A stretch of DNA of 64,000 bases. Origin: an uncultured Cyclobacterium sp. (GTDB lineage: Bacteria; Bacteroidota; Bacteroidia; Cytophagales; Cyclobacteriaceae). The notes beneath the pieces were generated by a model. It was not told the DNA's origin and searched no databases. It saw nothing but the letters and a program-made list of their open reading frames with translations. Below, piece after piece: positions 4,049 through 55,854 of this stretch (positions within the stretch are counted from its first letter, which is position 1; each line of letters opens with the position of its first letter). Location of the stretch: positions 19,195 to 83,194 of the forward strand of contig NZ_CAXBPD010000021.1 of the NCBI RefSeq assembly GCF_963977555.1, read 5' to 3'. Position numbers and translations under genes: made by a program.

Positions 4049-7000
4049 TTAAATTTTACTTTCTCGATCCAATAGCTGTTGTAGCAAACTGGCAAATAAG
4101 GTATCATTGGGGGGAGATATCATCGAACTATGTTCGCCTTCTGTCTCCCACACATTTAATTTCTCAACATATGGTTTCCAACCAAAATTCTCTTTATCCG
4201 GAAGGTATCCTGAAGCAATCCTTGCCTTGATCAAATCTACTTCACCGTTGTAATAACTGATTTCGTATTCCTTGCATGCCTCCTTATAAACGTATTCCAC
4301 TCGCTTATAGGTTTTAAGCAAGGAAGATTCTGCCTTCTCTTCTTCGGGGCGGTACCAATTTTGTACCTTTTGAAATTTCTTCCTCCATGAAGCTTTTTTA
4401 ATGCGCTTAAATATGGCTGGATGCTTGAGCAATAATTCTACATCAAACTTCCTCTTTCCATACACATGCCTCAAATTATTGATTAAGCGCTTCTTGAAAC
4501 TTTTATCGCGATCACTTTGGAAAGCGTAGGTGTCGAACAACACCAATTTTTCTACCACTTTCCCCATTTTCACCAGTTGGATAGCCATCTCGTAGGCTAT
4601 AATTCCCCCTAGCGAATATCCTGCCAAAAAATAAGGCCCTTGGGGGTTTTGTTGAAGTACTTCTTCAAGGTATTGGGAAGCAATGGCCTCAACAGTATGT
4701 AAAGGTTGCTCCACACCATCAAGCCCTTTAGCTTGAATCCCAAAAACAGGCTGTTCTCTATCCATCTCTCTGGCCACTGCATAAAAGGGCATAATATTCA
4801 AACCACCTCCATGTACAATGTACAAGGGTGGCTTGGTACCTGATTTTTTAATGGCGACCAAACATTTCCATTCGCTATTTCCCAAAACACCACTTTTAAT
4901 GGCCTGAGAGAGCTTCTGAATGGTAGGATATTTAAACAACACGGACAAAGGCAATCGAATCCCGTAAACTTTTTCCAATTGAACCATCACCTTCACCGCT
5001 ATGAGAGAGTGACCGCCTATTTCGAAAAAATTATCATTCTTATCTATCAAAGGTAGGCCAAGGGCTTTTTTCCAGATATCTGCTACCAACCTTTCATGAG
5101 GATCCAAAACAAACCCTTCCCCTTCGGACAATGGTGTCAGCCTCTCGGGATCGGGAAGACCCTTACGATTCACTTTGCCATTCTCCAATAAAGCAAAAGT
5201 TTTCAACCAAAGAAAATCCCTTGGAATCATGTAATTTGCTAAGGTAAGTCCCAGTTGGTCTTTCCAGATTCTGACCTGATCGGGCTCAAGGTATTGCCAT
5301 TCCTGATCGTTAAACGAACCTTTTTGAAATTGAGTAATGTATGCTTTTAGATATGCCTCTCCATTACTATCTTTCCTTACCAGAACGATGGCATCGCTTA
5401 CTCCTTCTAATTGCCTGATCTCGCTCTCCACCTCAGCCAATTCTATCCGGTATCCACGGATTTTAACCTGATGGTCTATGCGACCACTTACTACCAGTTC
5501 ATCCGAACGGTTGATCCAACCTAAATCCCCGGATTTAAACATCAGGTATTTGCCACCGCCCTCATTCCTGTTTTTCAAAAACCTTTCTTGGGTAAGTGCT
5601 GGTCTGTTCAAATAACCCCTGCCAACTCCATGTCCTGAAATAAAAATTTCTCCTTTTCTCCCTTTTTGAACTGGGTCACCATCTTTATTCAAAATGAGAA
5701 TTTGAGTGTTTAATACCGGCTTCCCAACCGTGATTTCAGAATCTGTTGAATGAATGCGTTTGATGTTGGAATAAACCGTGGTTTCAGTAGGCCCATAAAC
5801 ATTCCATAATTCTTCTCCAAGTGTTAGTAAGCGAAAGGCCAACTTTTTCTCCAAGGGTTCACCTCCGCTAATCATCCTCAACCCCTCAAACCTCTGGGTC
5901 CAGCCTCCCTCCAACAACATTTTCCAATGAGAAGGAGTAGCAAACATGATGGTTATTTCTCTTTTTTCCAGTTCCCCAATGATTGCTCGAGGTTCTTTGC
6001 ATTGCTCCTTGTCCAGGATCACAATCTGTGCACCATAAGCCAAGGAGACCAAGGTTTCCAGAAGGGCGATATCAAAAGAAACCGAACTCACGGCCAAAAC
6101 TTTATCCTCTTCCGAAACACCTGGTTTTTCCCTAACAACCGATACAAAGTTGAACAGGTTGAGGTGTTCCAATATCACCCCTTTGGGTTTACCAGTAGTA
6201 CCTGAGGTATAAATTATATAGGCAGGATCCTCAGCAAGGGGATTTATGGACAAATTATGCTCGGAATAATTTTCGCAATTGTCTATAAAATCCTCCCACA
6301 CAACTTTTTCTGCCTTGGTTTTTAGGTTTTCTTTTGTTTCAGAAGCAGCTATAAAAAACTTACAAGAATCATCGAGTATGTACTCAATCCGCTGCCTTGG
6401 ATAATCGGTATCCAGCGGTAAATAAGCCCCTCCAGCCTTAAGAATTCCCAAAATACTTATGAGAAATTCCGGAGACCTATCCAATACTATCCCTACTATT
6501 TGACCTTTTTTGAGACCTTTTCTCAATAAATGACCAGCCAATTGATTGGCCTTACCATTAAGGTCCTTGTAGGACACTTGCCTGTCTCTATAAAGCAGCG
6601 CAGCCTTGCTTTCATGCTTGTTTACCGCAGCTTCTATAAGCCTTTGGATGGGAGTGTATTTGCCACGAATTACGCTATCCTCTTCAATCATTCCAATACC
6701 CTTAAAAGTTGGGTTAGGAATTAACGAAGAAAGTTTTTGGTTTGGATCTGCCAGTGCTGCTTCCAGGAGCTGCTGGTATTGGGAGGCCAGTGATTTGATT
6801 CTGCTTACATCAAAAAGGTCTTTGGCATATTCTATCCTAATTCGATTTCCATCAGCGGTTTCTTTCGCTATAAAAGTAAGGTCAAATTTAGAGGTATTTT
6901 GAGAAATGGGCATCACCTCCATAGACAACCCCTCTGCTTTGTAAAAGACCTCTTTGTCAAATTCCATGACAAACATTACTTGAAACAATGGGTTTTCACC

Positions 7001-10000
7001 AAATCGCCTATTTTGAGCGCTTGCTGCAACAATTTTTTCAAAAGGAACATCCTGGTGATCGAAAGCTTCCAAGGTGTTTTTCTTTACCTCCAAAAGTATT
7101 TCTTTAAACGAATCCTCCGGTTTCAAAATACTACGAATTGGCAAAGGATTTACAAAATACCCAATAAGAGGCTCTGCCTCCACTTGTTTTCTTAGCCCCA
7201 TTGCTGTACCGACACACAGATCCTCCTGCCCGCTGCTTCTTCCTATTAGGGATTTAAATGCAGCCAGTAAAATTATAAAAGGGGAGATGCCAAGCTGCTG
7301 CCCAAGGTTCAGCATTCTGTTATTTTGTCTTGGATCGATAATGAAATCAAAGGTTTCGCCTTTATGCGATCTCTGTTTAAAACTTTCTCCTTCCCCTAAT
7401 AAATTCAAAGGCTTAATTCCATCCAGTTTGCTTTTCCAGTAAACCAATTTTTCTTCCAGAACATCGGCAGTGAGTAGGTCTCTTTGCCACAATGCATAAT
7501 CTGTGTATTGAATTTTTAAATGGGGTAAAAACAAACTTTCCCCTGATTTTTCAGCGTTTACCAGGGCAAAAAGTTCTTTGATGAAAACAGGTATTGACCA
7601 CCCGTCAAAAGCAATATGGTGAACAATGACTAGCAAAAGGCATTCATCGGAACCTATAGGATACAGTTTGGCCCGAATCATAAAATCCTTTTCTAAATCA
7701 AAGGGTCTTTCTAATAATTCAGCTATGTCTTCATCAGGAAAGTTTGAATGAGAATAATTTATATCTTCTGAGGCTTCGCTCAGCTCCCAACCCAAAACAG
7801 GCATTATTTGCTGAGAAGCTTCTTCACCCTTTTCCTTTATAACTGTTCTTAGTACTTCGTGGCGCTCCAAAATACTTTGAATCGCTTCTTGCAAAATTAA
7901 CCTTCTGCTTTCTCCCTTTATTTTCAAAAGCACAGGAACATGGTATTGGCTGGATCCTTCCAACTTATCAATAAGCCAAAGGCTTTCCTGACCATATGAG
8001 AGCGGTATGAATGCTGGCCTGGGTCTGAAGGGCAGGATACGGGAAATTTCTGTTTCTTTTTGCTCTTTATGCTGGATAATACTGGCAATACCAGAAACAG
8101 TGGGATTTGAAAACAATTCGCTGATACTAATTTCTACTCCAATGGACTCCTTAATTTTTCCAACCATTTTGATAGCTAAAAGGGAATTTCCTCCGGATAA
8201 GAAGAAGTCATCTTTGATGCCTGGCTTGTCAGAGTGTATTACTTTCCTCCATAGGTCCAGCAATTGGCTTTCCAACAAAGTAGTTGGAGCCTCAAACCCA
8301 TCACCTTCAAGCGCTAGCACAACTGCGCTTTCCAGCTTTTTCCGGTCAATTTTTCCATTTGGAGTTAGTGGCAATTTATCCAACCGTTCTAACCGGGAAG
8401 GCACCATAAACGGCGGGACAATATTTTTCATATTGTCTACTAATCTCTTTTTATCCAGGCTTTTATCTCCAGTCACAAATGCAGCCAAAACCTTCTCTCC
8501 TGAGGAACTGTTTTGAAGGACTACTACCGCATTTTCCACCCCTTCCAGCGATTCCAATATGGCAGAAACCTCATCCAACTCTATTCTGTATCCATTCAAC
8601 TTGACCTGATTGTCCAACCTCCCTAAAAAGTCAATGCTACCGTCCTCACACCATAAGCCCAGATCACCCGTTTGGTAAAGGAGATTTCCATCTCCCTCAG
8701 CCAGTGGATTTAAAATGAATTTTTCGGCTGTTAATTCAGGTCGGTTCAAGTATCCAGCTGCCAGTCCTTTCCCCCCTAGGTAGATTTCTCCAGGAATACC
8801 AACCGGGCAAGGCATCCGATCGGGATTCAAGATATAGGCAAAACTTCCCGCTATTGGTCGACCAATAGACAATGACCTTCCAGAAGTTAGTTTCACACAT
8901 GTGGAATAAGTGGTGTCTTCAGTAGGCCCGTAGAGGTTTCTCACTGTCATTCTTCTTAAATCCAACCGATCTGTAAGCTGGGTCGGTATGGGCTCCCCGG
9001 CCATGTTCAGAAGGCTGACATTTGACAAGTCAACTTTTGCCTCTACTAATTTCTGCACCAGACTAGGTACGGTATTGATCAAAACACGCTCATCGCGGTG
9101 TAAGTATTCAGGAATTTGAAGTCCATTTTGAAGAATCCGCGTAGTTTTGCCATATGCCAATGGGAAAAACAGTTCAAATATTGAAAGGTCAAAACATATG
9201 GAGGTAGCCGCATACATTAAACCAAAGCTATTGGGACTAAATTCCTTACCACACCAATCCAGAAATGCAGCCAAGTTGCCATGTGTAAGGTTTACCCCTT
9301 TGGGTTTACCTGTGCTTCCGGAAGTATATATTAGGTAAGCGCTTTCCTTCGCGGAGATTAAAAGAGGCTCTTGGTCATTTTCTGAATTATCGACAAATGC
9401 TTCAGATAACAAAATTACTTTTCTCCTTTCAGGCAGTTCTGGAATATTGCCGGAATCAGTATCTGTTACTATATAATAGGCATTGCAATCTGCCAATATA
9501 AAGGCAATTCTTTCTTTTGGATAACTTAGATCAACAGGCACATAAGCCGCACCTGCTTTCCATATACCCAGCATTGCAGCGACCATGTCCATTCCCCTTT
9601 GTACCAAAAGAACCACATGATCCCCTCTTTTCACGCCTTCCCTTCTCAAAGTGCCGGCAAACTGATTTGCCCGATGCTCCAAATCACTAAAGCCAAGGTG
9701 ATTTTCTCCCAACAACAGTGCTGGTGCATTTCCTAAGAGGCTTACCTGCTCTTTAAACCGCTCAAAAAAACTTTGGTAAATTTCTTCTTTTTTGTATACT
9801 TTCCTTCCTGAGAGCTCATCAATCTCCTTATTCGAAAGCAAAGCTATTTCTTTCAAAGGTTTACCGACATTCTTTGGCAGCTCCTGCATCAGTCGCTTAA
9901 AATGAGTAAACATCCTTTGCATCCTATCAGGAACAAATAAATCTAGGTCATACTCAATGGTGCCGTTAATGCCATTATTATCTCCTGAAAGTGTGAAAGT

Positions 10001-12964
10001 AATGTCGTATTTTGCAGCTATGGGATCCGATTCAATAATTTTAGTATCGAGCCCTGGTAAAAGTAGCTTCTCAGTGCTGGCTGATCCATCGTGCATCACA
10101 AACAAGACATTGAAAAATGGTTCTCCAGATTTGTTTCTGGAAGCAAACGATTCTACCAATTTTGTGAAAGGAATCTGGCTAAATTCTAAAGCCAGAAGCA
10201 CTTCTTCTCTAATCTGCTTAATGAATGCACCAAAATTTTCTTCTGTATTGATTTTAGATCTTAAAGGTAAGGTATTGACAAAATATCCGATCAATTCTTC
10301 AGTACCTGCCCAATTTCGATCTACTACAGGGACGCCCACACAAATATCTTTTTGGTTGCTGTACCGGTAAAGCAAAACTTTAAAAACCGCTAAAAAAGCC
10401 ATGAAAAGGGAAGCTTCACTTTCTTTGGCAATAGAAGCAATTGGTCCAATTTCTTCACGATCTAGAAAAAATCGTTGCGTACCTACTTTTCGGGGGGAAG
10501 TTGATGGTTTTTTAAAATCTTTTGGTAGTTGCAGGATATTCCAACCGGCTAATGCCTCTTCCCAAAAGGACATGCCAGCCTTATAATCTAATGTATCTAT
10601 TAGTTTTTGTTGCTGTTGAAGATACCAGGTGTAGTTTTGGGTAGTAGAAGTATGGTCCCGACCTGTTCCATTAACGATTGTTTGGTAGTTTTCAGATAAT
10701 TCCTTAACAAACAACTTCATTGAATAATCATCAAAAGCAATATGATGAAAAACGAATCCTAGTATTTGGATACCATCGCTGTATTTAATCAATATTCCTC
10801 GCACCATAAAATCTCTCTTAAGATCAAATGGAGATTGAAAAAATGGGGCAAGAATTGCGTTACTGTGTGTGGCTGAATAGGATTCTTCTGAAAAATCCTT
10901 AATTAACAGGTTCCACCCTTCTTCGGATTTAAGCGTTACCTGGTCAATGTCCAAAAAGCAGGTTTTCAATATTTCGTGTCGTTTCATTACAGCACGAATA
11001 GCCCATTCAAGCTTTTCTGCATCCAGTTTACCAGTCAAAAGGTAGGTCACGGGTAGGTGGTAGGCCAGTGACCCTTCGAGTTTATCTATGAACCAAAGCG
11101 ATTGCTGTGCAAATGAAACACTGGAAGCAGCCGTTCTAATTTGAGGAATTGATCGAATGGTTGTTTCTACATCTAGCTTGTTACGGCTGAGGGTTAGCTT
11201 GTGTAATTGAGCAATCGTGGGAAAATTAAAAATATCTGATACGCTAACCTGCAGGTTTCGTTCTTTTTTAAGATGTGCAGCTAATCTCATCGCAGCTAGA
11301 GAATTGCCTCCAGCCTCAAAAAAATTGAGAAATTGTCCGGTATTTTCAAGACCAAGAACGCGATCGAAGGCTTCCTGAAGAAAACGCAACTCAGGATCTG
11401 CGATAAACTCGTTTTGGGTAGAATCGTCCTTTCGTGAACTGGGAATTAATGCCGCTTGGTTCACTTTTCCATTTTCGGTAAGTGGAAAACTTTCCCTCAT
11501 TTCAATTTTGCCAGGCAACATATAGGAAGGAAGGCGCTGTGCCATCACTTCTTTTATATGTAATGGATCCAACTCAGTTCCTGACACCACAAATAGGACA
11601 ATTTGTTCAGGAGAATTATTTGTTGGTTTGGAAAGGATGGCGAAGGCTTCCTTTACCAGTGCTGTTTCAAGTGCCGCCTTTTCAATTTCAATCAAATCCA
11701 CCCGATTTCCTTGGAATTTTACCTGTCGATCTTTTCTTCCCTCAAACACCAAAGAGCCGTCTGGAAGTATGCGCACCATATCGCCAGTGGCATACATTAC
11801 GCCGCCTTTATCACCATCAAAGGGATTAGGGAGAAATAAGGCAGCAGTTAATGCTGGATCTTTCCAATAGCCCAAGGCGACTTGCGGTCCACCAATATAA
11901 AGCTCCCCCAACGCTCCCATAGGCACTTTGCAGCCGTCCTGGTCCAGTACATAACATACAACACCTGGAACAGGTCTCCCTATAGTAACCTGGTCTCGAT
12001 CTGGTTTAATTTGGGCCACAGTAGACCAAATGGTAGCCTCAGTTGGTCCATACTCGTTGTAGAGGTCAACATTATGCATCTCGAGAAAATGACTCGAGGC
12101 AAGCTCATCCGGCAATCGCTCACCTCCTAAAATCACCCGTTGTAGTTGCTGCCCTTTTAATAGATCATGCTCTAAAAGAAATCGGTAGTACGAAGGAACA
12201 CAAAGCAATGTATCTGTTCCTTGAAATAAACTGGGAAGGAGTTCGGGTTCCTGAATTGATCGGATGGGACTAATCACAAGACTTCCCCCAGTGCATAATG
12301 GCCAAAAGATTGCCGCAAGTGAGGCATCAAAGGTAAGTGGTGGAATCAACAGCAAATGGGGGATGCAAGCATAATACTTTATTCTGCTTTGAATAGCATG
12401 GAAAAGTTGTTGATGACCGACCATAACGCCCTTAGGCTCACCTGTACTTCCAGAAGTATACATGATGTAGGCAAGGGGCCCCTCCTTAATTTTAGCTCTG
12501 GAGGGCAAATCCACACCAGCCTCTCTTAAAACCCTACTAAATGGAAGGTTTATAATTTGCTGTTGCTTCTCTTTTATCTCTGAATCATTATCTGTAAGTA
12601 GTATATTTACACCCAACTGATTGAGAATCTCATGCTTTCTATTTTCCGGCCACTCGGGATTTATCGGAGCAAAAGCCTTTCCAGATTTGACAATTCCCAG
12701 GATCGCCGCTATGTAATGGTAGCTTCTCTCCATACTTAAAGGAATGACTTCCTGATTTTTGAGGTCAGCGTTAATTATATAGGAACATACCCTGGAAGAC
12801 AATTTATCCAAGTCAGAATACGTATAGGAATTTTTTCCCTCTCGAATTACAGTCGCGGTTGGAAAGTATCCAACCATTTGTAGAAATAAATCTATCAATG
12901 TATAATCTTCCTCAGGCTGACGGTTATTAATTTGTCCATGAAAATTCAATACTTTCATCTGCAT
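4049..12964 (-). CDS. Three-module non-ribosomal peptide synthetase (A-T-C-A-T-C-A-T-TE)
   Basis: Three A domains (YTSGSTG/YTSGTTG, YGPTE); three carrier motifs GGNS, GGNS, GGHS; two C domains HHIAFDD and HHIAFDG; C-terminal thioesterase GYSLG plus EGEH. Confidence 0.97.
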   Translation of the reverse strand: MQMKVLNFHGQINNRQPEEDYTLIDLFLQMVGYFPTATVIREGKNSYTYSDLDKLSSRVCSYIINADLKNQEVIPLSMERSYHYIAAILGIVKSGKAFAPINPEWPENRKHEILNQLGVNILLTDNDSEIKEKQQQIINLPFSRVLREAGVDLPSRAKIKEGPLAYIMYTSGSTGEPKGVMVGHQQLFHAIQSRIKYYACIPHLLLIPPLTFDASLAAIFWPLCTGGSLVISPIRSIQEPELLPSLFQGTDTLLCVPSYYRFLLEHDLLKGQQLQRVILGGERLPDELASSHFLEMHNVDLYNEYGPTEATIWSTVAQIKPDRDQVTIGRPVPGVVCYVLDQDGCKVPMGALGELYIGGPQVALGYWKDPALTAALFLPNPFDGDKGGVMYATGDMVRILPDGSLVFEGRKDRQVKFQGNRVDLIEIEKAALETALVKEAFAILSKPTNNSPEQIVLFVVSGTELDPLHIKEVMAQRLPSYMLPGKIEMRESFPLTENGKVNQAALIPSSRKDDSTQNEFIADPELRFLQEAFDRVLGLENTGQFLNFFEAGGNSLAAMRLAAHLKKERNLQVSVSDIFNFPTIAQLHKLTLSRNKLDVETTIRSIPQIRTAASSVSFAQQSLWFIDKLEGSLAYHLPVTYLLTGKLDAEKLEWAIRAVMKRHEILKTCFLDIDQVTLKSEEGWNLLIKDFSEESYSATHSNAILAPFFQSPFDLKRDFMVRGILIKYSDGIQILGFVFHHIAFDDYSMKLFVKELSENYQTIVNGTGRDHTSTTQNYTWYLQQQQKLIDTLDYKAGMSFWEEALAGWNILQLPKDFKKPSTSPRKVGTQRFFLDREEIGPIASIAKESEASLFMAFLAVFKVLLYRYSNQKDICVGVPVVDRNWAGTEELIGYFVNTLPLRSKINTEENFGAFIKQIREEVLLALEFSQIPFTKLVESFASRNKSGEPFFNVLFVMHDGSASTEKLLLPGLDTKIIESDPIAAKYDITFTLSGDNNGINGTIEYDLDLFVPDRMQRMFTHFKRLMQELPKNVGKPLKEIALLSNKEIDELSGRKVYKKEEIYQSFFERFKEQVSLLGNAPALLLGENHLGFSDLEHRANQFAGTLRREGVKRGDHVVLLVQRGMDMVAAMLGIWKAGAAYVPVDLSYPKERIAFILADCNAYYIVTDTDSGNIPELPERRKVILLSEAFVDNSENDQEPLLISAKESAYLIYTSGSTGKPKGVNLTHGNLAAFLDWCGKEFSPNSFGLMYAATSICFDLSIFELFFPLAYGKTTRILQNGLQIPEYLHRDERVLINTVPSLVQKLVEAKVDLSNVSLLNMAGEPIPTQLTDRLDLRRMTVRNLYGPTEDTTYSTCVKLTSGRSLSIGRPIAGSFAYILNPDRMPCPVGIPGEIYLGGKGLAAGYLNRPELTAEKFILNPLAEGDGNLLYQTGDLGLWCEDGSIDFLGRLDNQVKLNGYRIELDEVSAILESLEGVENAVVVLQNSSSGEKVLAAFVTGDKSLDKKRLVDNMKNIVPPFMVPSRLERLDKLPLTPNGKIDRKKLESAVVLALEGDGFEAPTTLLESQLLDLWRKVIHSDKPGIKDDFFLSGGNSLLAIKMVGKIKESIGVEISISELFSNPTVSGIASIIQHKEQKETEISRILPFRPRPAFIPLSYGQESLWLIDKLEGSSQYHVPVLLKIKGESRRLILQEAIQSILERHEVLRTVIKEKGEEASQQIMPVLGWELSEASEDINYSHSNFPDEDIAELLERPFDLEKDFMIRAKLYPIGSDECLLLVIVHHIAFDGWSIPVFIKELFALVNAEKSGESLFLPHLKIQYTDYALWQRDLLTADVLEEKLVYWKSKLDGIKPLNLLGEGESFKQRSHKGETFDFIIDPRQNNRMLNLGQQLGISPFIILLAAFKSLIGRSSGQEDLCVGTAMGLRKQVEAEPLIGYFVNPLPIRSILKPEDSFKEILLEVKKNTLEAFDHQDVPFEKIVAASAQNRRFGENPLFQVMFVMEFDKEVFYKAEGLSMEVMPISQNTSKFDLTFIAKETADGNRIRIEYAKDLFDVSRIKSLASQYQQLLEAALADPNQKLSSLIPNPTFKGIGMIEEDSVIRGKYTPIQRLIEAAVNKHESKAALLYRDRQVSYKDLNGKANQLAGHLLRKGLKKGQIVGIVLDRSPEFLISILGILKAGGAYLPLDTDYPRQRIEYILDDSCKFFIAASETKENLKTKAEKVVWEDFIDNCENYSEHNLSINPLAEDPAYIIYTSGTTGKPKGVILEHLNLFNFVSVVREKPGVSEEDKVLAVSSVSFDIALLETLVSLAYGAQIVILDKEQCKEPRAIIGELEKREITIMFATPSHWKMLLEGGWTQRFEGLRMISGGEPLEKKLAFRLLTLGEELWNVYGPTETTVYSNIKRIHSTDSEITVGKPVLNTQILILNKDGDPVQKGRKGEIFISGHGVGRGYLNRPALTQERFLKNRNEGGGKYLMFKSGDLGWINRSDELVVSGRIDHQVKIRGYRIELAEVESEIRQLEGVSDAIVLVRKDSNGEAYLKAYITQFQKGSFNDQEWQYLEPDQVRIWKDQLGLTLANYMIPRDFLWLKTFALLENGKVNRKGLPDPERLTPLSEGEGFVLDPHERLVADIWKKALGLPLIDKNDNFFEIGGHSLIAVKVMVQLEKVYGIRLPLSVLFKYPTIQKLSQAIKSGVLGNSEWKCLVAIKKSGTKPPLYIVHGGGLNIMPFYAVAREMDREQPVFGIQAKGLDGVEQPLHTVEAIASQYLEEVLQQNPQGPYFLAGYSLGGIIAYEMAIQLVKMGKVVEKLVLFDTYAFQSDRDKSFKKRLINNLRHVYGKRKFDVELLLKHPAIFKRIKKASWRKKFQKVQNWYRPEEEKAESSLLKTYKRVEYVYKEACKEYEISYYNGEVDLIKARIASGYLPDKENFGWKPYVEKLNVWETEGEHSSMISPPNDTLFASLLQQLLDRESKI

Positions 12965-14397: not shown

Positions 14398-14608
14398 AAA
14401 CATTCCTTACCGGTCGAAATTCTAAAGCGTGGGGAAAGGCAGGTTATGGATATCCTAACTTACCATCGACCCTCTAAGGTCCATCTTAGTCCATTGTGCT
14501 TCACTTATTTTATCCCCTTTCAATAGCGCCATAACCTTACCTTTCTACTAGGTATATTGAATCAACCTTGAGAAGTAAAGCTTCGCTATCCCCAACCGAT
14601 TCCAAGAC

Positions 14609-14643
14609 AAAAAAAAAGCCATGAAACAAAATCTCATAGCTTT
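14609..14643 (-). terminator. Intrinsic terminator of tRNA-like unit 1 (identical copies at 16191-16225 and 16696-16729)
   Basis: Minus strand AAAGCTATGAGA-TTTTG-TTTCATGGCTTT followed by a T-run. Confidence 0.8.
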
Positions 14644-14674
14644 AGTCAATTAACAATAAACCCAAAATAACCTG

Positions 14675-14798
14675 CTGTAGGAGAAGGAGTCGAACCTCCA
14701 CGGAGCAGTTAGGAAAAATACGAGCTCGCTATTTTCTTTGTCCTGTGATCCCCACCCCCGAGACAGGAGGGCATGTCTGCCAGTTTCATCATCCTACA
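14675..14798 (-). tRNA. Atypical tRNA-Asp(GUC)-like RNA with 55-nt variable arm, copy 1
   Basis: Acceptor TGTAGGA/TCCTACA + G73; D-arm ATG-AAACTGGCAGA-CAT; anticodon arm CCCTC-CTGTCTC-GGGGG; T-arm GGAGG-TTCGACT-CCTTC; CCA not encoded. Confidence 0.7.
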
Positions 14799-14861
14799 GT
14801 ATAAATCGGTAATAAAGTTTCTTTTCATTACCCAAAGACCTTTTGTCTTTGTTTGATGTTT

Positions 14862-14869
14862 CAAAGGTA
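14862..14869 (-). promoter_or_regulatory. Bacteroidota -7 promoter element TACCTTTG for tRNA-like unit 1
   Basis: Matches TAnnTTTG; same sequence at the same offset in copies 2 (16447-16454) and 3 (16951-16958). Confidence 0.7.
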
Positions 14870-15210
14870 ACAAAAAGATTAATAAATTAAAATTATGACA
14901 ACATATAAGATACATTTTTACATTTTTTTTATTATTTTACATTAAAATCAACCTTTTCAATATTTTAACCCTTTGAAATTCACCTTTCATTGAAAAATAT
15001 TAAAATCCAGCTGGAGACCTACCCCAAGGAGCAGCTATTAACAAAAAAAAAATGGTTAAATCTTCATGAATTCATTTTTAGTATTTAATAAAAAAAATTG
15101 GTTTTTTTATTATTTTACTATTTTTAAAGGTATTAGTTTGATTATTATATATTTTTATTCAACCTTTGTTATTGATTACATATTAAGAAAACACCACAAC
15201 TACCACTATT

Positions 15211-16020
15211 ATGAAAGAGACAGGATTTTTAATTGACATGGACGGTGTCATCTACCGGGGAGGGGAATTGATACCTGGAGCGAAGGAATTTATTCAAAAA
15301 TTACTGGAAGAAGACTACCCCTTTAGGTTCCTCACCAATAACAGCCAGAGAAACTGCAGAGACGTAGTAGCAAAACTAAGTAGAATGGGAATAGGCGTTA
15401 AGGAAAAGCATATTTTTACCTGCGCCATAGCTACAGCCAGGTACCTTGCTGCACAAAAACCTAATGGCACAGCTTATGTGATAGGAGAAGGGGGTTTGTT
15501 GACAGCATTACACCAAAACGGATACTCTATAGTAGATGACGCACCAGACTATGTAGTCATCGGAGAAGGCCGTACGATTATGCTAGAATCTGTAGACAAA
15601 GCTATAAACATGGTAATGAATGGCGCCAAACTCATTGCCACCAACCTCGATGCCTACTGCCCAAGTTCCAATAATTCAATCCGCTCAGGTTGTGGTGCTT
15701 TTGTATCCATGATAGAAATGGCCACTGGCAGAAAAGCCTTTAGCGCAGGCAAACCAAACCCAGTGATGATGAGAATTGCCAAAGCAGAATTGGGAACTCA
15801 TTCTGCTAATACCATCATGATTGGGGACACCATGGAAACAGACATATTAGGCGGAGTTCAAATGGGATTTAAAACGGTACTTACCCTAACGGGCTCCACC
15901 AAGATCGACGACCTGGACGCTTACGCCTATTCACCAGATCATATTATTTCTAGTATTCAGGAATTAAATGATCCAATGGTCTTAGAACAGATTGTAAATG
16001 GAGACCTGGTCCTTCAATAG
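15211..16020 (+). CDS. HAD-superfamily subfamily IIA hydrolase (NagD-like phosphatase)
   Basis: DMDGV nucleophile motif, LTNN, GKP and GDTMETD motifs. Confidence 0.92.
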   Translation: MKETGFLIDMDGVIYRGGELIPGAKEFIQKLLEEDYPFRFLTNNSQRNCRDVVAKLSRMGIGVKEKHIFTCAIATARYLAAQKPNGTAYVIGEGGLLTALHQNGYSIVDDAPDYVVIGEGRTIMLESVDKAINMVMNGAKLIATNLDAYCPSSNNSIRSGCGAFVSMIEMATGRKAFSAGKPNPVMMRIAKAELGTHSANTIMIGDTMETDILGGVQMGFKTVLTLTGSTKIDDLDAYAYSPDHIISSIQELNDPMVLEQIVNGDLVLQ

Positions 16021-16048
16021 GCAAGCAATTGCAATTCCATTTAACACT

Positions 16049-16084
16049 AAAGGTAACGTATCGCGGCATACGTTACCTTTTTTT
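16049..16084 (+). terminator. Intrinsic terminator after the HAD gene
   Basis: aaaggtaacgtat-cgcggc-atacgttaccttt plus T-run. Confidence 0.85.
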
Positions 16085-16256
16085 CTGACCGCTTTTAATT
16101 GGGATCATCACCAGGACATGGATACATTCTATCAAGACAGCACCCATTAATTGGAAATAAAACCAAAGACTACCCTAAAAATTTGGGTACAAAAAAAAAG
16201 CCATGAAACAAAATCTCATAGCTTTAGTCAATTAACAATAAACCCAAAATAACCTG

Positions 16257-16380
16257 CTGTAGGAGAAGGAGTCGAACCTCCACGGAGCAGTTAGGAAAAA
16301 TACGAGCTCGCTATTTTCTTTGTCCTGTGATCCCCACCCCCGAGACAGGAGGGCATGTCTGCCAGTTTCATCATCCTACA
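16257..16380 (-). tRNA. Atypical tRNA-Asp(GUC)-like RNA, copy 2
   Basis: Identical by eye to 14675-14798 (offset 1582). Confidence 0.7.
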
Positions 16381-16760
16381 GTATAAATCGTCAGCATCAA
16401 GTAAGCTTTTAACTGACCAAAGACCGTTTGTCTTTGTTTGATATTTCAAAGGTAGTAAAAAGCGCTTAAAATTAAAATTACAGCAACAAATTAGGTTGTT
16501 TTTTACATTATATTTATTTTATTGTATATTTAAATTCACTATTAATAATTATTATTACTGAATTTGGCTATAAATTGGAAGATTTGTAACCATAAATTTT
16601 CGAGCATCAAATAATGCTTCAAAGTAGCTTTTTCAATATGATAAAAGCAAAAACTGCTGACTTAAAGGCATTCCCTACCCTAATAATTTGGGCACAAAAA
16701 AAAGCCATGAAACAAAATCTCATAGCTTTAGTCAATTAACAATAAACCCAAAATAACCTG

Positions 16761-16884
16761 CTGTAGGAGAAGGAGTCGAACCTCCACGGAGCAGTTAGGA
16801 AAAATACGAGCTCGCTATTTTCTTTGTCCTGTGATCCCCACCCCCGAGACAGGAGGGCATGTCTGCCAGTTTCATCATCCTACA
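16761..16884 (-). tRNA. Atypical tRNA-Asp(GUC)-like RNA, copy 3
   Basis: Identical by eye to copies 1 and 2 (504 bp from copy 2). Confidence 0.7.
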
Positions 16885-17113
16885 GTATATATCATCAGCA
16901 TCAAGTAAGCTTTTAACTGACCAAAGACCGTTTGCCTTTGTTTGATATTTCAAAGGTAGTAAAAAGCGCTTATAATTAAAATTATAGCAACAAATTATAA
17001 TATTTTTTACATTATAATTATTTTTAAAAGCATTTATTTACCATATTTAAAATTTTTACACCTCCACCATCCACAATATTAGAAAATCCACAACAGAAAG
17101 AACTAGAAAAAAG

Positions 17114-17845
17114 TCACTCAATTCCAGGAGCTGTTTTAGAGGAATCTTTAACCAAACGCTGCACTTCCTCAAGCTCTTCAGAAGACAAGTCTCTCCATTT
17201 ACCCTTGGGAACATCTAAGCGAATTTTCATTATCCGAACACGCTGCAGAGACACTACTTTATACCCTAGGTAATCACACATCCTCCTAATTTGTCGGTTA
17301 AGTCCTTGGGTAAGGATTATCTTAAAAGTGTCCTTTCTCATTTGTTTGACATAACACTTTTGGGTGATTATGTCCAAAATGGGCACTCCTTTGCTCATTC
17401 TATCTATAAAGTCTCCTTCAATGTCGCGATTCACTTTTACTATGTACTCCTTTTCATGAGAATTTCCAGCGCGTAATATCTTATTGACGATATCCCCATC
17501 GCTTGTCAAAAAAATAAGGCCTTCACTAGGTTTGTCCAACCTTCCAATATGAAAAATGCGCTGTGGGTGATTGATATAATCTATAATATTGTCTTTTACC
17601 TTTGTGTCTGTAGTGCAAATGATCCCAACAGGTTTGTTAAAAGCAATGTAAACATGCTTTTCATTAGGAGCTGTGACTACCACACCATCAACTTTCACTT
17701 CATCCCCAGGCCCAATCTTAGTCCCCATCTCAGGAACCTTATCATTAATGGTCACCCTATTCGCGGCTATCATTCTGTCGGCTTCCCTTCTGGAGCAATA
17801 CCCTATTTCACTTAGAAACTTATTAATCCTGACTTCACTTTTCAC
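17114..17845 (-). CDS. rluF: 23S rRNA pseudouridine(2604) synthase RluF
   Basis: S4 domain RINKFLSEIGYCSRREAD, GRLD catalytic motif, GLNRQIRRMC; GTG start. Confidence 0.88.
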   Translation of the reverse strand: MKSEVRINKFLSEIGYCSRREADRMIAANRVTINDKVPEMGTKIGPGDEVKVDGVVVTAPNEKHVYIAFNKPVGIICTTDTKVKDNIIDYINHPQRIFHIGRLDKPSEGLIFLTSDGDIVNKILRAGNSHEKEYIVKVNRDIEGDFIDRMSKGVPILDIITQKCYVKQMRKDTFKIILTQGLNRQIRRMCDYLGYKVVSLQRVRIMKIRLDVPKGKWRDLSSEELEEVQRLVKDSSKTAPGIE

Positions 17846-18956: not shown

Positions 18957-19925
18957 ATGAAAGTCCTTTTCTACCTGTGTGCTATTTTACCCCTTGTATT
19001 CTCATGCAATTGGTCTTCAGAGCAGCCGCTTCAAAGTAAGCAAATCCTGGAAGGCTACCACATTACCGCTATTGATTTTGATAAAGCAGGCAATGCATGG
19101 CTGGGAACGCTAGATCAGGGATTAATTAAATATGACGGAGAAAATAAAATTGTTTTCTCTGAAATAAAGGAAATGATTCGATCAATTAAAGTAGACAGCA
19201 AAAATCAGGTTTACATAGGTTCCAATGGTTTGGTCAGGTATGACGGGGAAAAATTCACCCACTTTTATTCGAACAATGGCCTAATGCCCGAAGGCCATGT
19301 AAACGCAATCGCTATCGATTCTCAGGACATGGTTTATTTTTCCGCTGGTAGCTTTCAGAATGGTGGTTTGGGAAAACTAAATAAGGATATCCTGACTTTT
19401 TATGACCCAGAAAACTCACCTTTGCCAGCACACTGGGTGAGTGGAGTAGTCGTCAACCAGCAGGATGAGGTCTGGGTCGCGTCCCAAACCAGTGTAAACG
19501 ACACCTATTTAACCAAATTAAATACACAGGGTCAGTGGGAAGTTTTCTCTCCTGAACAAATAGGTTTTACACCCTATTCTATCACTAATCTTCAGGTAAT
19601 CAGCAATGGAGAACTATTTGGCGGTATAGATTATTCCTTGTCTAGTAGTTCCGGCACTTCCAGACCCCAATTATTTACCTATAATGAAATCAAGGGTAAA
19701 GAAATTACAGCGAACAGGCCTTTTAACACCAATTTTATCCTGGCAGATGGCTCAGACCGCATTTGGTGTTCTGGAATGGGTGGTTATGGCGTTTATGAAA
19801 ATGGGCAATGGTCATGGGATCAGGATTCTTTTCAAGAAATAGGTATTTTCACCCTCGCTGAAGCCCCTAATGGTGACATATGGCTGGGAACAGGGGATGG
19901 CGTCCGTGTGCTGTCTTTTCCTTAA
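18957..19925 (+). CDS. Beta-propeller lipoprotein (two-component regulator propeller-like repeats)
   Basis: Lipobox VFSC; repeated D.xGN(A/I)WLGT..G and YDGE strands. Confidence 0.7.
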   Translation: MKVLFYLCAILPLVFSCNWSSEQPLQSKQILEGYHITAIDFDKAGNAWLGTLDQGLIKYDGENKIVFSEIKEMIRSIKVDSKNQVYIGSNGLVRYDGEKFTHFYSNNGLMPEGHVNAIAIDSQDMVYFSAGSFQNGGLGKLNKDILTFYDPENSPLPAHWVSGVVVNQQDEVWVASQTSVNDTYLTKLNTQGQWEVFSPEQIGFTPYSITNLQVISNGELFGGIDYSLSSSSGTSRPQLFTYNEIKGKEITANRPFNTNFILADGSDRIWCSGMGGYGVYENGQWSWDQDSFQEIGIFTLAEAPNGDIWLGTGDGVRVLSFP

Positions 19926-55672: not shown

Positions 55673-55767
55673 TTAAATAAATTTTTCTGGTTAAACATAG
55701 CAGAAATGAGGGGACAATTCTACTTTAGTTGTTTACCCAATAGCATTACGTACGATTAGCTATTTCA

Positions 55768-55845
55768 CATTTCCCTTCGCCGGCATTATCCGGATCAGGT
55801 GATATGGGTATGATCTCAGCCCGTTATATTAAGGCACCCCTAATG
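55768..55845 (-). ncRNA. TPP riboswitch
   Basis: Minus strand GGGGTGCC..GGCTGAGATCATACCC..ACCTGATCCGGATAATGCCGGCGAAGGGAA matches the THI-box consensus. Confidence 0.95.
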
Positions 55846-55854
55846 ATCTTGCCA

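Follow-up and report, generated by a model that had tools for sequence, protein, structure and literature searches.

The present study deals with a window of 64,000 nucleotides from an uncultured Cyclobacterium sp. (the whole stretch of DNA that was analysed: positions 19,195 to 83,194 of the forward strand of contig NZ_CAXBPD010000021.1, RefSeq assembly GCF_963977555.1) and with three tRNA-shaped genes of 124 nt on its minus strand, which are 100% identical to one another. An earlier note on this DNA had described them as three identical cloverleafs, each furnished with its own -7 element and terminator, and our analysis confirmed this arrangement at the positions listed in Table 1. The 124-nt bodies are the cores of a repeat unit of approximately 300 nt. 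Copies 2 and 3 are 98% identical over the whole unit, and copy 1 reaches only 77% beyond the core, the core itself being identical. The genome holds eight copies, namely six identical ones, one that is 96% alike, and a 141-nt paralogue at 72%.

Regarding the flanking signals, the sequence TACCTTTG upstream of each copy matches the Bacteroidota consensus TAnnTTTG and is a putative -7 promoter box; a TAnnTTTG box also lies 30-75 nt upstream of the homologues in other genera. The leader between the box and the core measures 60-75 nt and is presumably removed by RNase P, and the terminator hairpin begins approximately 35 nt past each core. A terminator scan of the region returned 7 terminator-like sites against 1.7 expected, and all three copies were included among them, with hairpin and T-run at 14643-14615, 16225-16197, and 16729-16701. 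The three loci are probably independently transcribed genes. The conservation of the leader and trailer of the Cyclobacterium copies is confined to the genus. A 14-bp helix between the two (16409-16422 with 16222-16235) can form in Cyclobacterium, and was rejected as a closing helix of the RNA because the leader and trailer are kept only in this genus and are missing from the tandem arrays found elsewhere.

Table 1. Positions of the tRNA-like RNA genes, their flanking signals, and other features in the window
Feature	Positions	Strand	Remarks
tRNA-like RNA, copy 1	14675..14798	-	U1 at 14798, G73 at 14675, conserved C74 at 14674; 145 bits with covariance model R1
tRNA-like RNA, copy 2	16257..16380	-	
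tRNA-like RNA, copy 3	16761..16884	-	
Putative -7 box, copy 1	14862..14869	-	matches TAnnTTTG
Putative -7 box, copy 2	16447..16454	-	sequence match
Putative -7 box, copy 3	16951..16958	-	sequence match
Leader of copy 2, ~60 nt	16381..16440	-	hairpin CAAAGAC/GTCTTTG at 16418-16436; same layout in copies 1 and 3
Intrinsic terminator, copy 1	14607..14643	-	13-bp stem and T-run
Intrinsic terminator, copy 2	16189..16225	-	13-bp stem and T-run
Intrinsic terminator, copy 3	16693..16729	-	13-bp stem and T-run
TGTAAAWWT element, copy 1	about 14915-14922	-	semi-conserved
TGTAAAWWT element, copy 2	about 16501-16507	-	semi-conserved
TGTAAAWWT element, copy 3	about 17005-17011	-	semi-conserved
RluF-like pseudouridine synthase gene	17114..17845	-	
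Non-ribosomal peptide synthetase open reading frame	4049..12964	-	2971 aa
TPP riboswitch	55755..55851	-	69 bits, full length

Fold, sequence signature, and relation to known RNAs

A cloverleaf of 31 pairs was drawn by hand and compared across 21 homologues from the same order, in which 96% of the cells pair and both sides have changed at 16 of the 31 pairs. None of 500 shuffles reached the observed value on any of five measures, and strand-slid controls paired at approximately 55%. The minimum-energy fold of one 124-nt copy was no better than that of shuffled sequences (z = -0.8). Support for the fold thus comes from covariation and not from folding energy, and it indicates that the cloverleaf is real.

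The cloverleaf includes a 7-bp acceptor stem, a 3-bp D stem closed by an 11-nt loop (AAACUGGCAGA), a 5-bp anticodon-like stem with the 7-nt loop CUGUCUC, and a 5-bp T stem with the loop UUCGAMU. These elements agree with those first proposed, and the acceptor and T stems covary. The hybrid, class II nature of the body was also borne out, the D arm and the layout of U44, a stem, and GU before the T stem matching the tRNA-Leu of this genome. The 55-nt variable arm of the window copies begins with P1 (GGRG/CYCC, here GGGG/CUCC), which covaries and is followed by a bulge of 4-5 nt on the 5' side; it continues with the 3-bp P2 (here CAG/CUG, covarying to UUG/CAA, CCG/CGG, and GCC/GGU), a conserved internal loop with NAYAAA opposite CUAA, and a distal stem P3 that starts at G63-C86, the first pair of which covaries among G-C, C-G, and U-G. 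Among the four helices that had been postulated for this arm, P1, P2, and the distal stem were therefore retained, whereas AGGA/UCCU proved to be the conserved internal loop. An additional pair between C(-1) and G73 was abandoned, since position -1 is C, U, or A among the homologues.

Across the members of the family, the acceptor pairs U1-A72, G2-C71, and U3-A70 (UGU...ACA), G73, C74, and the anticodon-like stem are near-invariant, with the UGU...ACA ends occurring in approximately 95% of 152 cellular and 81 phage sequences. The consensus of the anticodon-like loop reads Y-N-G-U-C-U-C (observed as CUGUCUC, UUGUCUC, UCGUCUC, CGGUCUC, CCGUCUC, and CAGUCUC), in which U35-C36-U37-C38 is near-invariant and position 33 may be U, C, G, or A; position 10 also varies. 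An anticodon loop in which position 33 is free and position 37 holds a pyrimidine does not decode. The tRNA complement of the genome is normal and includes two tRNA-Asp(GUC) genes, the loop of which (CUGUCAC) differs from that of the RNA at position 37 only. In the host tRNA-Asp, the terminal pair is G1-C72 and the variable loop is 5 nt long, whereas the RNA has U1-A72 and the 55-nt arm. The combination of U1-A72 and G73 is an acceptor end of the tRNA-Asn type, and the discriminator is followed by C74, as in the host tRNA genes compared. Since position 33 varies and position 37 is U, and normal tRNA-Asp genes are present, sequence comparison indicates that the RNA is a conserved tRNA mimic and not a decoder, as had been suggested. 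The identity set of aspartyl-tRNA synthetase (AspRS) consists of G73, G34, U35, C36, and C38; the earlier note had regarded this set as intact, and we found it to be conserved across three orders.

ARAGORN detected no tRNA in the window, and Rfam 15 gave nothing at the three loci either at the gathering threshold or at E<=10, with the models for tRNA (RF00005), tRNA-Sec, and YrlA included. Seven large members of the family likewise gave nothing relevant at E<=1 (no YrlA or Y_RNA). An assignment as tmRNA was rejected because the true tmRNA lies elsewhere in the genome and the match is limited to 11 nt of the T loop. An assignment as tRNA-Leu was rejected because the discriminator is G73 instead of A73 and the loop reads GUC. 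As an elongator tRNA-Asp, the RNA lacks recognition by the tRNA finder and model, a conserved U33, a purine at position 37, a short variable loop, and a host-like acceptor end.

Several known RNAs may be compared with this one. Besides the features of the body already described, bacterial class II tRNA-Leu shares the 11-nt loop (A/G)AAYUGGYAGA and A15 with U48, the D arm being AUG/AAACUGGCAGA/CAU in the RNA and GCG/GAACUGGUAGA/CGC in the host tRNA-Leu; the RNA differs in G73, U1-A72, the Asp-type loop, and an arm that is 3-7 times longer and contains a conserved internal loop and hairpin. Allo-tRNAs, reported by Mukai and colleagues in 2017, are built with 8/4 or 9/3 acceptor/T helices, possess serine identity, and can decode. 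They resemble the RNA in that they are bacterial, have a long variable arm and odd anticodons including GUC, and are missed by standard finders, whereas the RNA has 7/5 helices, both of which covary, a far longer arm, and a loop unfit for decoding. The non-proteinogenic tRNA-Gly species of Staphylococcus, which donate glycine for the pentaglycine of the cell wall, are of normal size, have a decoding-competent loop, and bind EF-Tu weakly; they offer a precedent for a dedicated tRNA acting off the ribosome as a metabolic aminoacyl carrier, although in a different pathway. YrlA and the bacterial Y RNAs also contain a tRNA-like module within a non-coding RNA; the ends of YrlA form the Ro-binding stem and its acceptor-like stem is closed, whereas the ends of the present RNA form a normal acceptor stem, and it has neither an Rfam match nor an rsr neighbour.

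Distribution, processing, and phage-borne members

BLAST recovered the RNA from 31 of 41 relatives, with 2-9 copies per species of the genus. A covariance model (R1) scored members at 79-149 bits (105-213 nt) and its best non-family match, ordinary tRNA-Leu, at 55-66 bits. Scores above 79 bits were reached in genomes of many families. A pattern scan of named genomes found members in Cytophagales (Cyclobacterium, Algoriphagus, Dyadobacter, Spirosoma, and others), Chitinophagales (Chitinophaga, Hanamia, Ferruginibacter, and Saprospiraceae), and Sphingobacteriales (Pedobacter and Sphingobacterium), and within Flavobacteriales in a few metagenome-assembled genomes only. These matches indicate that the family is distributed over three or more orders of Bacteroidota and also over phages of these bacteria.

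Most members exceed the window copies in size, with a median of 149 nt, a maximum of 213 nt, and an arm of up to approximately 110 nt. The larger arm carries a conserved mini-hairpin, GGGUUGACCAC (N-G-GG-[UUGA]-CC-A-C-N'), the closing pair of which covaries; 103 of 223 distinct sequences possess this hairpin, and it is gone from the Cyclobacterium copies. A 77-nt member (G037:C23:55337-55413; L212:188-264, minus strand) has the same ends and D arm, the loop CUAUCUC, and a variable loop of 4 nt. Since this member has almost no arm and that of Cyclobacterium is reduced, the arm is accessory or dispensable. The window copies are a reduced and multiplied variant of a large family of structured RNAs, in which the larger arm is the ancestral state and the distal domain of the arm was lost in Cyclobacterium. 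Besides a large arm, the members L063 (genome G311), L051, L054, and L064-L067 have a D loop into which extra U's or a whole hairpin are inserted. Literature searches found no description of the RNA, which is apparently undescribed, and the family is missing from Rfam and from genome annotation.

Several genomes hold 2-3 tandem copies that are 55-100 nt apart and have no terminators between them, as in tRNA operons. Metatranscriptome contigs from seawater and salt lakes, which come from relatives, match conserved parts of the window RNA, with a summed contig depth of up to approximately 300 in one run, contigs being weak evidence. In pure-culture RNA-seq assemblies of a Chitinophaga-like organism, contigs cover a member of the family and end 6-8 nt before the 3' end of the RNA with the adapter directly after, and the next 60-130 nt past the member are uncovered. 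The conserved C74, the tandem copies, these RNA-seq ends, and the phage tRNA arrays argue for processing of the RNA in the manner of a tRNA.

Regarding phages, at least 120 IMG/VR contigs carry full-length members, whose ends, loop, and arm hairpin agree with those of the cellular ones. Other tRNAs were present in 55 of the 87 phage loci that were fetched, with up to 25 per array. In the near-complete phage sets, which comprise 24-25 tRNAs, a normal tRNA-Asp is present as well, and in 13 of the 21 large phage arrays no further tRNA-Asp was seen within the fetched stretch. The phage arrays fit a context of tRNA processing and leave room for a role related to conflict.

Gene neighbourhood and phylogenetic profile

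The neighbours of the RNA in the window encode an ion channel, a HAD hydrolase, an RluF-like pseudouridine synthase, and a D-Ala-D-Ala ligase, none of which recurs elsewhere. Outside Cyclobacterium, a single neighbour is widely shared, namely a protein of approximately 155 aa that belongs to the Lrp/AsnC family, found at 83 of 127 loci and at 14 of 15 hand-picked loci. Its gene is always divergent from the RNA, with the start codon 124-251 bp from the 5' end of the latter. The best NCBIfam match of this regulator is AsnC (1.8e-45, 154 bits, under the equivalog cut-off of 227), and Lrp scores 66 bits. Orthologues with at least 54% identity occur in all carrier genomes. In Cyclobacterium, the regulator (67% identical) is located before sufB with no RNA nearby, and the copies of the window genome, an atypical carrier, are unlinked from it. 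The AsnC-like gene was found at none of the 87 fetched phage loci.

Two RNA-less genomes from different families (G155 and G147) have a weaker homologue of the regulator that is divergent from a true asnB at a distance of 83-125 bp, and asnB in these genomes holds the position that the RNA takes in carriers. In E. coli, asnC is divergent from asnA. A link to the suf operon was rejected as a general property and is lineage-specific, because sufB follows the regulator at only 22 of the 127 loci. Genes for Ro60, RtcB, and WYL proteins were absent among the conserved neighbours at the 127 loci; the connections to RNA repair and to WYL proteins that the earlier note had entertained were accordingly dropped, as was that to Ro60 and Y RNAs, for which neither a YrlA or Y_RNA match nor a neighbouring rsr was found.

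A few further observations concern the surroundings of these genes. The semi-conserved TGTAAAWWT element lies approximately 55-60 nt upstream of the TAnnTTTG box, is present at regulator-linked genes of other genera and at the unlinked copies of Cyclobacteriaceae alike, and could be an UP element or a binding site of the regulator. Copies 3 and 2 are immediately preceded, on their own strand, by the RluF-like gene, and the 141-nt paralogue (G000:C13:173463-173603) directly follows an RluD-like gene (172212-173246), a linkage that is kept in five genomes of three genera and not elsewhere; the association with pseudouridine synthases may be due to chance. The non-ribosomal peptide synthetase of the window is not a conserved neighbour of the RNA, and the TPP riboswitch is the only match in the window at the Rfam gathering level.

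The phylogenetic profile was based on 62 genomes, nearly all the class-level genomes of an even draw, of which 32 were RNA-positive and 30 RNA-negative; G083 was counted as positive for a copy cut by a contig end beside the regulator, and G037 for its 77-nt form. All 32 positive genomes and 2 of the 30 negative ones contain gatB (Fisher 1e-15, not corrected for phylogeny). True AsnB (equivalog NF006949) occurs in 0/32 and 20/30, respectively, with 19 of the 20 above the curated cut-off. The profile for asnA is 2/32 (the window genome and G037) and 2/30 (G071 and G171), and asparaginyl-tRNA synthetase (AsnRS) is present in every genome of either group. Glutaminyl-tRNA synthetase (GlnRS) is missing only in the window genome (G000), G037, G139, G164, G191, and G311, and its absence accounts for gatB in the RNA-negative G139. 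When the comparison is limited to genomes with AsnRS as well as GlnRS, 27 of 27 RNA-positive and 1 of 29 RNA-negative genomes contain gatB. In each of three families that include carriers as well, there are genomes from which the RNA and gatB are jointly absent, which argues against a single split. The RNA strictly co-occurs with gatB and excludes true asnB.

This exclusion holds only for NF006949. Complementarity with the broad asnB family (TIGR01536) was rejected because paralogues are found everywhere, and complementarity with AsnRS was rejected because AsnRS is universal in the sample. The asnB-family paralogues of carriers (600-640 aa) score 272-335 bits on the AsnB equivalog, the cut-off of which is 499, and resemble EPS-type amidotransferases most closely; a non-carrier protein of 554 aa scored 958 bits. 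In the window genome, asnA is present, and GlnRS and the AsnB equivalog are missing; since it has no GlnRS, this genome needs GatCAB for Gln-tRNA in any case.

A proposed asparagine-forming carrier and its alternatives

A link between the RNA and asparagine/GatCAB metabolism is likely, and the comparative evidence that connects the family with tRNA-dependent synthesis of asparagine is strong. Some Bacteroidetes have been reported to possess AsnRS, GlnRS, and GatCAB and no Asn synthetase, and the synthesis of Asn on tRNA-Asn by a non-discriminating AspRS was proposed for them (PMC4206432). GatCAB confined to asparagine biosynthesis was described in Deinococcus, Thermus, and Bdellovibrio, and U1-A72 was stated to be the GatCAB determinant (PMC4206432). 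The present RNA resembles the tRNA-Asn of this indirect pathway (PMC4206432) in U1-A72, in G73, in the presence of GatCAB alongside AsnRS and GlnRS with neither AsnA nor AsnB, and, if our reading is correct, in that Asn is made on the RNA. It differs in having the Asp-type GUC instead of GUU, a non-decoding loop (N33 and U37), a class II body with an arm of 55-110 nt, an AsnC-like partner gene, and a product that is not directly translatable.

The most economical mechanism, in which we infer every step beyond the presence of the nucleotides themselves, is an asparagine-forming carrier: AspRS would charge the RNA with Asp, and GatCAB would amidate it to Asn off the ribosome. We assign this reading a probability of roughly 0.45. 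It rests on the RNA joining the GatCAB determinant and the AspRS identity set on a non-decoding body, tracking gatB, excluding AsnB, and taking the slot of asnB or asnA on the side of AsnC. In this mechanism, the precursor would be excised by tRNA-processing enzymes and given CCA, after which AspRS would aspartylate the RNA by reading G34-U35-C36, C38, and G73. GatCAB would then accept the RNA via U1-A72 and convert Asp to Asn on it, while U37, the free position 33, and the oversized arm would hold the RNA off the ribosome such that no Asn would be inserted at Asp codons. Asn would be released or handed on for AsnRS, which is present in every carrier genome, and the AsnC-like regulator would set the level of the RNA according to the asparagine supply. 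In Cyclobacterium, the gene has been multiplied, has lost its distal arm domain, and has come to lie apart from the regulator. The earlier note had proposed an aminoacyl donor outside translation, which was right in outline and is partly supported; the pairing with AsnC, the co-occurrence with GatCAB, the exclusion of AsnB, the larger arm, and phage carriage turn it into an asparagine-pathway hypothesis.

Several points weigh against the carrier reading. The association with gatB and asnB was not corrected for phylogeny, and carriers keep 1-5 asnB-family paralogues that are possibly active. The window genome can make Asn without the RNA, by asnA, and yet has the highest copy number of the RNA. 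The host tRNA-Asn also has U1-A72, and therefore the published route of a non-discriminating AspRS and tRNA-Asn could explain GatCAB without the RNA. G34 is found in nearly all copies and is replaced by A or U in a few. The D loop is of class II size, with 11 nt and more in some members, and such a loop might be an anti-determinant for GatB, for which a small D loop is expected. Moreover, we know of no release step for Asn from the RNA, and phage carriage was not predicted by the model.

In one alternative, the RNA regulates or senses the pathway and does not carry its product, either as a tRNA mimic that assembles (as a transamidosome scaffold) or titrates AspRS, GatCAB, or AsnRS or as a reporter of Asp/Asn charging, with Asn being made on mischarged tRNA-Asn. 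The linkage to AsnC and the co-occurrence with gatB apply equally to this explanation; tRNA-Asn already has U1-A72, a route by non-discriminating AspRS is published (PMC4206432), and the large conserved arm hairpin resembles a protein handle. However, the invariant acceptor end, G73, C74, and the AspRS-type loop exceed the needs of a scaffold, and the arm is dispensable, as the 77-nt member and the reduced arm of Cyclobacterium illustrate, and we consider the alternative to be unlikely. That the RNA serves as a functional tRNA-Asp isoacceptor, equipped with a giant variable arm and decoding GAY codons perhaps under special conditions or for phages, is improbable. GUC is found in most copies and members occur in phage tRNA arrays, including the 13 of 21 large ones in which no other tRNA-Asp was seen within the fetched stretch; however, position 33 is unconserved and position 37 a pyrimidine, both the Rfam tRNA model and ARAGORN reject the RNA, and a canonical tRNA-Asp is present in every host checked and in the phage sets of 24-25 tRNAs. 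In addition, U1-A72 in a GatCAB-positive cell would turn Asp to Asn and cause mistranslation.

The RNA may also be viewed as a decoy or replacement part in conflicts between phages and hosts, for example against an anticodon nuclease that cuts tRNAs with G/Q34-U35 (Asp, Asn, His, and Tyr). The high copy number in Cyclobacterium and the number of phage contigs with full-length members, with which the AsnC-like gene was not found at the fetched loci, are in line with this view; defence genes are not among the conserved neighbours, and the pairing with AsnC, the co-occurrence with gatB, the exclusion of asnB, and the invariant acceptor end would be left unexplained, and we regard this view as improbable. 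A dedicated donor of Asp or Asn for non-ribosomal transfer onto a lipid, a cell-wall precursor, or a natural product would agree with features that are non-decoding and chargeable, with the analogy of the staphylococcal tRNA-Gly, and with the peptide synthetase nearby in the window. However, that enzyme is not a conserved neighbour, and no transferase of the Fem, MprF, CDPS, LanB, or PEARL type recurs beside the RNA at the 127 loci; we regard this explanation as very improbable.

Returning to the asparagine-forming carrier, a broader and still more tentative proposal, at somewhat less than even odds, is that many Bacteroidota make free Asn on a dedicated, translation-excluded RNA that replaces AsnB beside asnC, that an AsnC-like repressor or activator tunes this pathway, and that phages boost it with a copy of their own. 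Irrespective of the mechanism, an abundant and widespread structured RNA with an extra domain of 55-110 nt has been missed by annotation and Rfam, and phage tRNA arrays frequently contain a passenger that was presumably missed or mislabelled. If the carrier model is true, a tRNA-derived RNA would be kept purely as a metabolic cofactor for amino acid synthesis, which would explain the retention of GatCAB by many environmental Bacteroidota that have both AsnRS and GlnRS. The ancient process of tRNA-dependent amidation would then be uncoupled from decoding, and the fidelity of translation would no longer be threatened by it.

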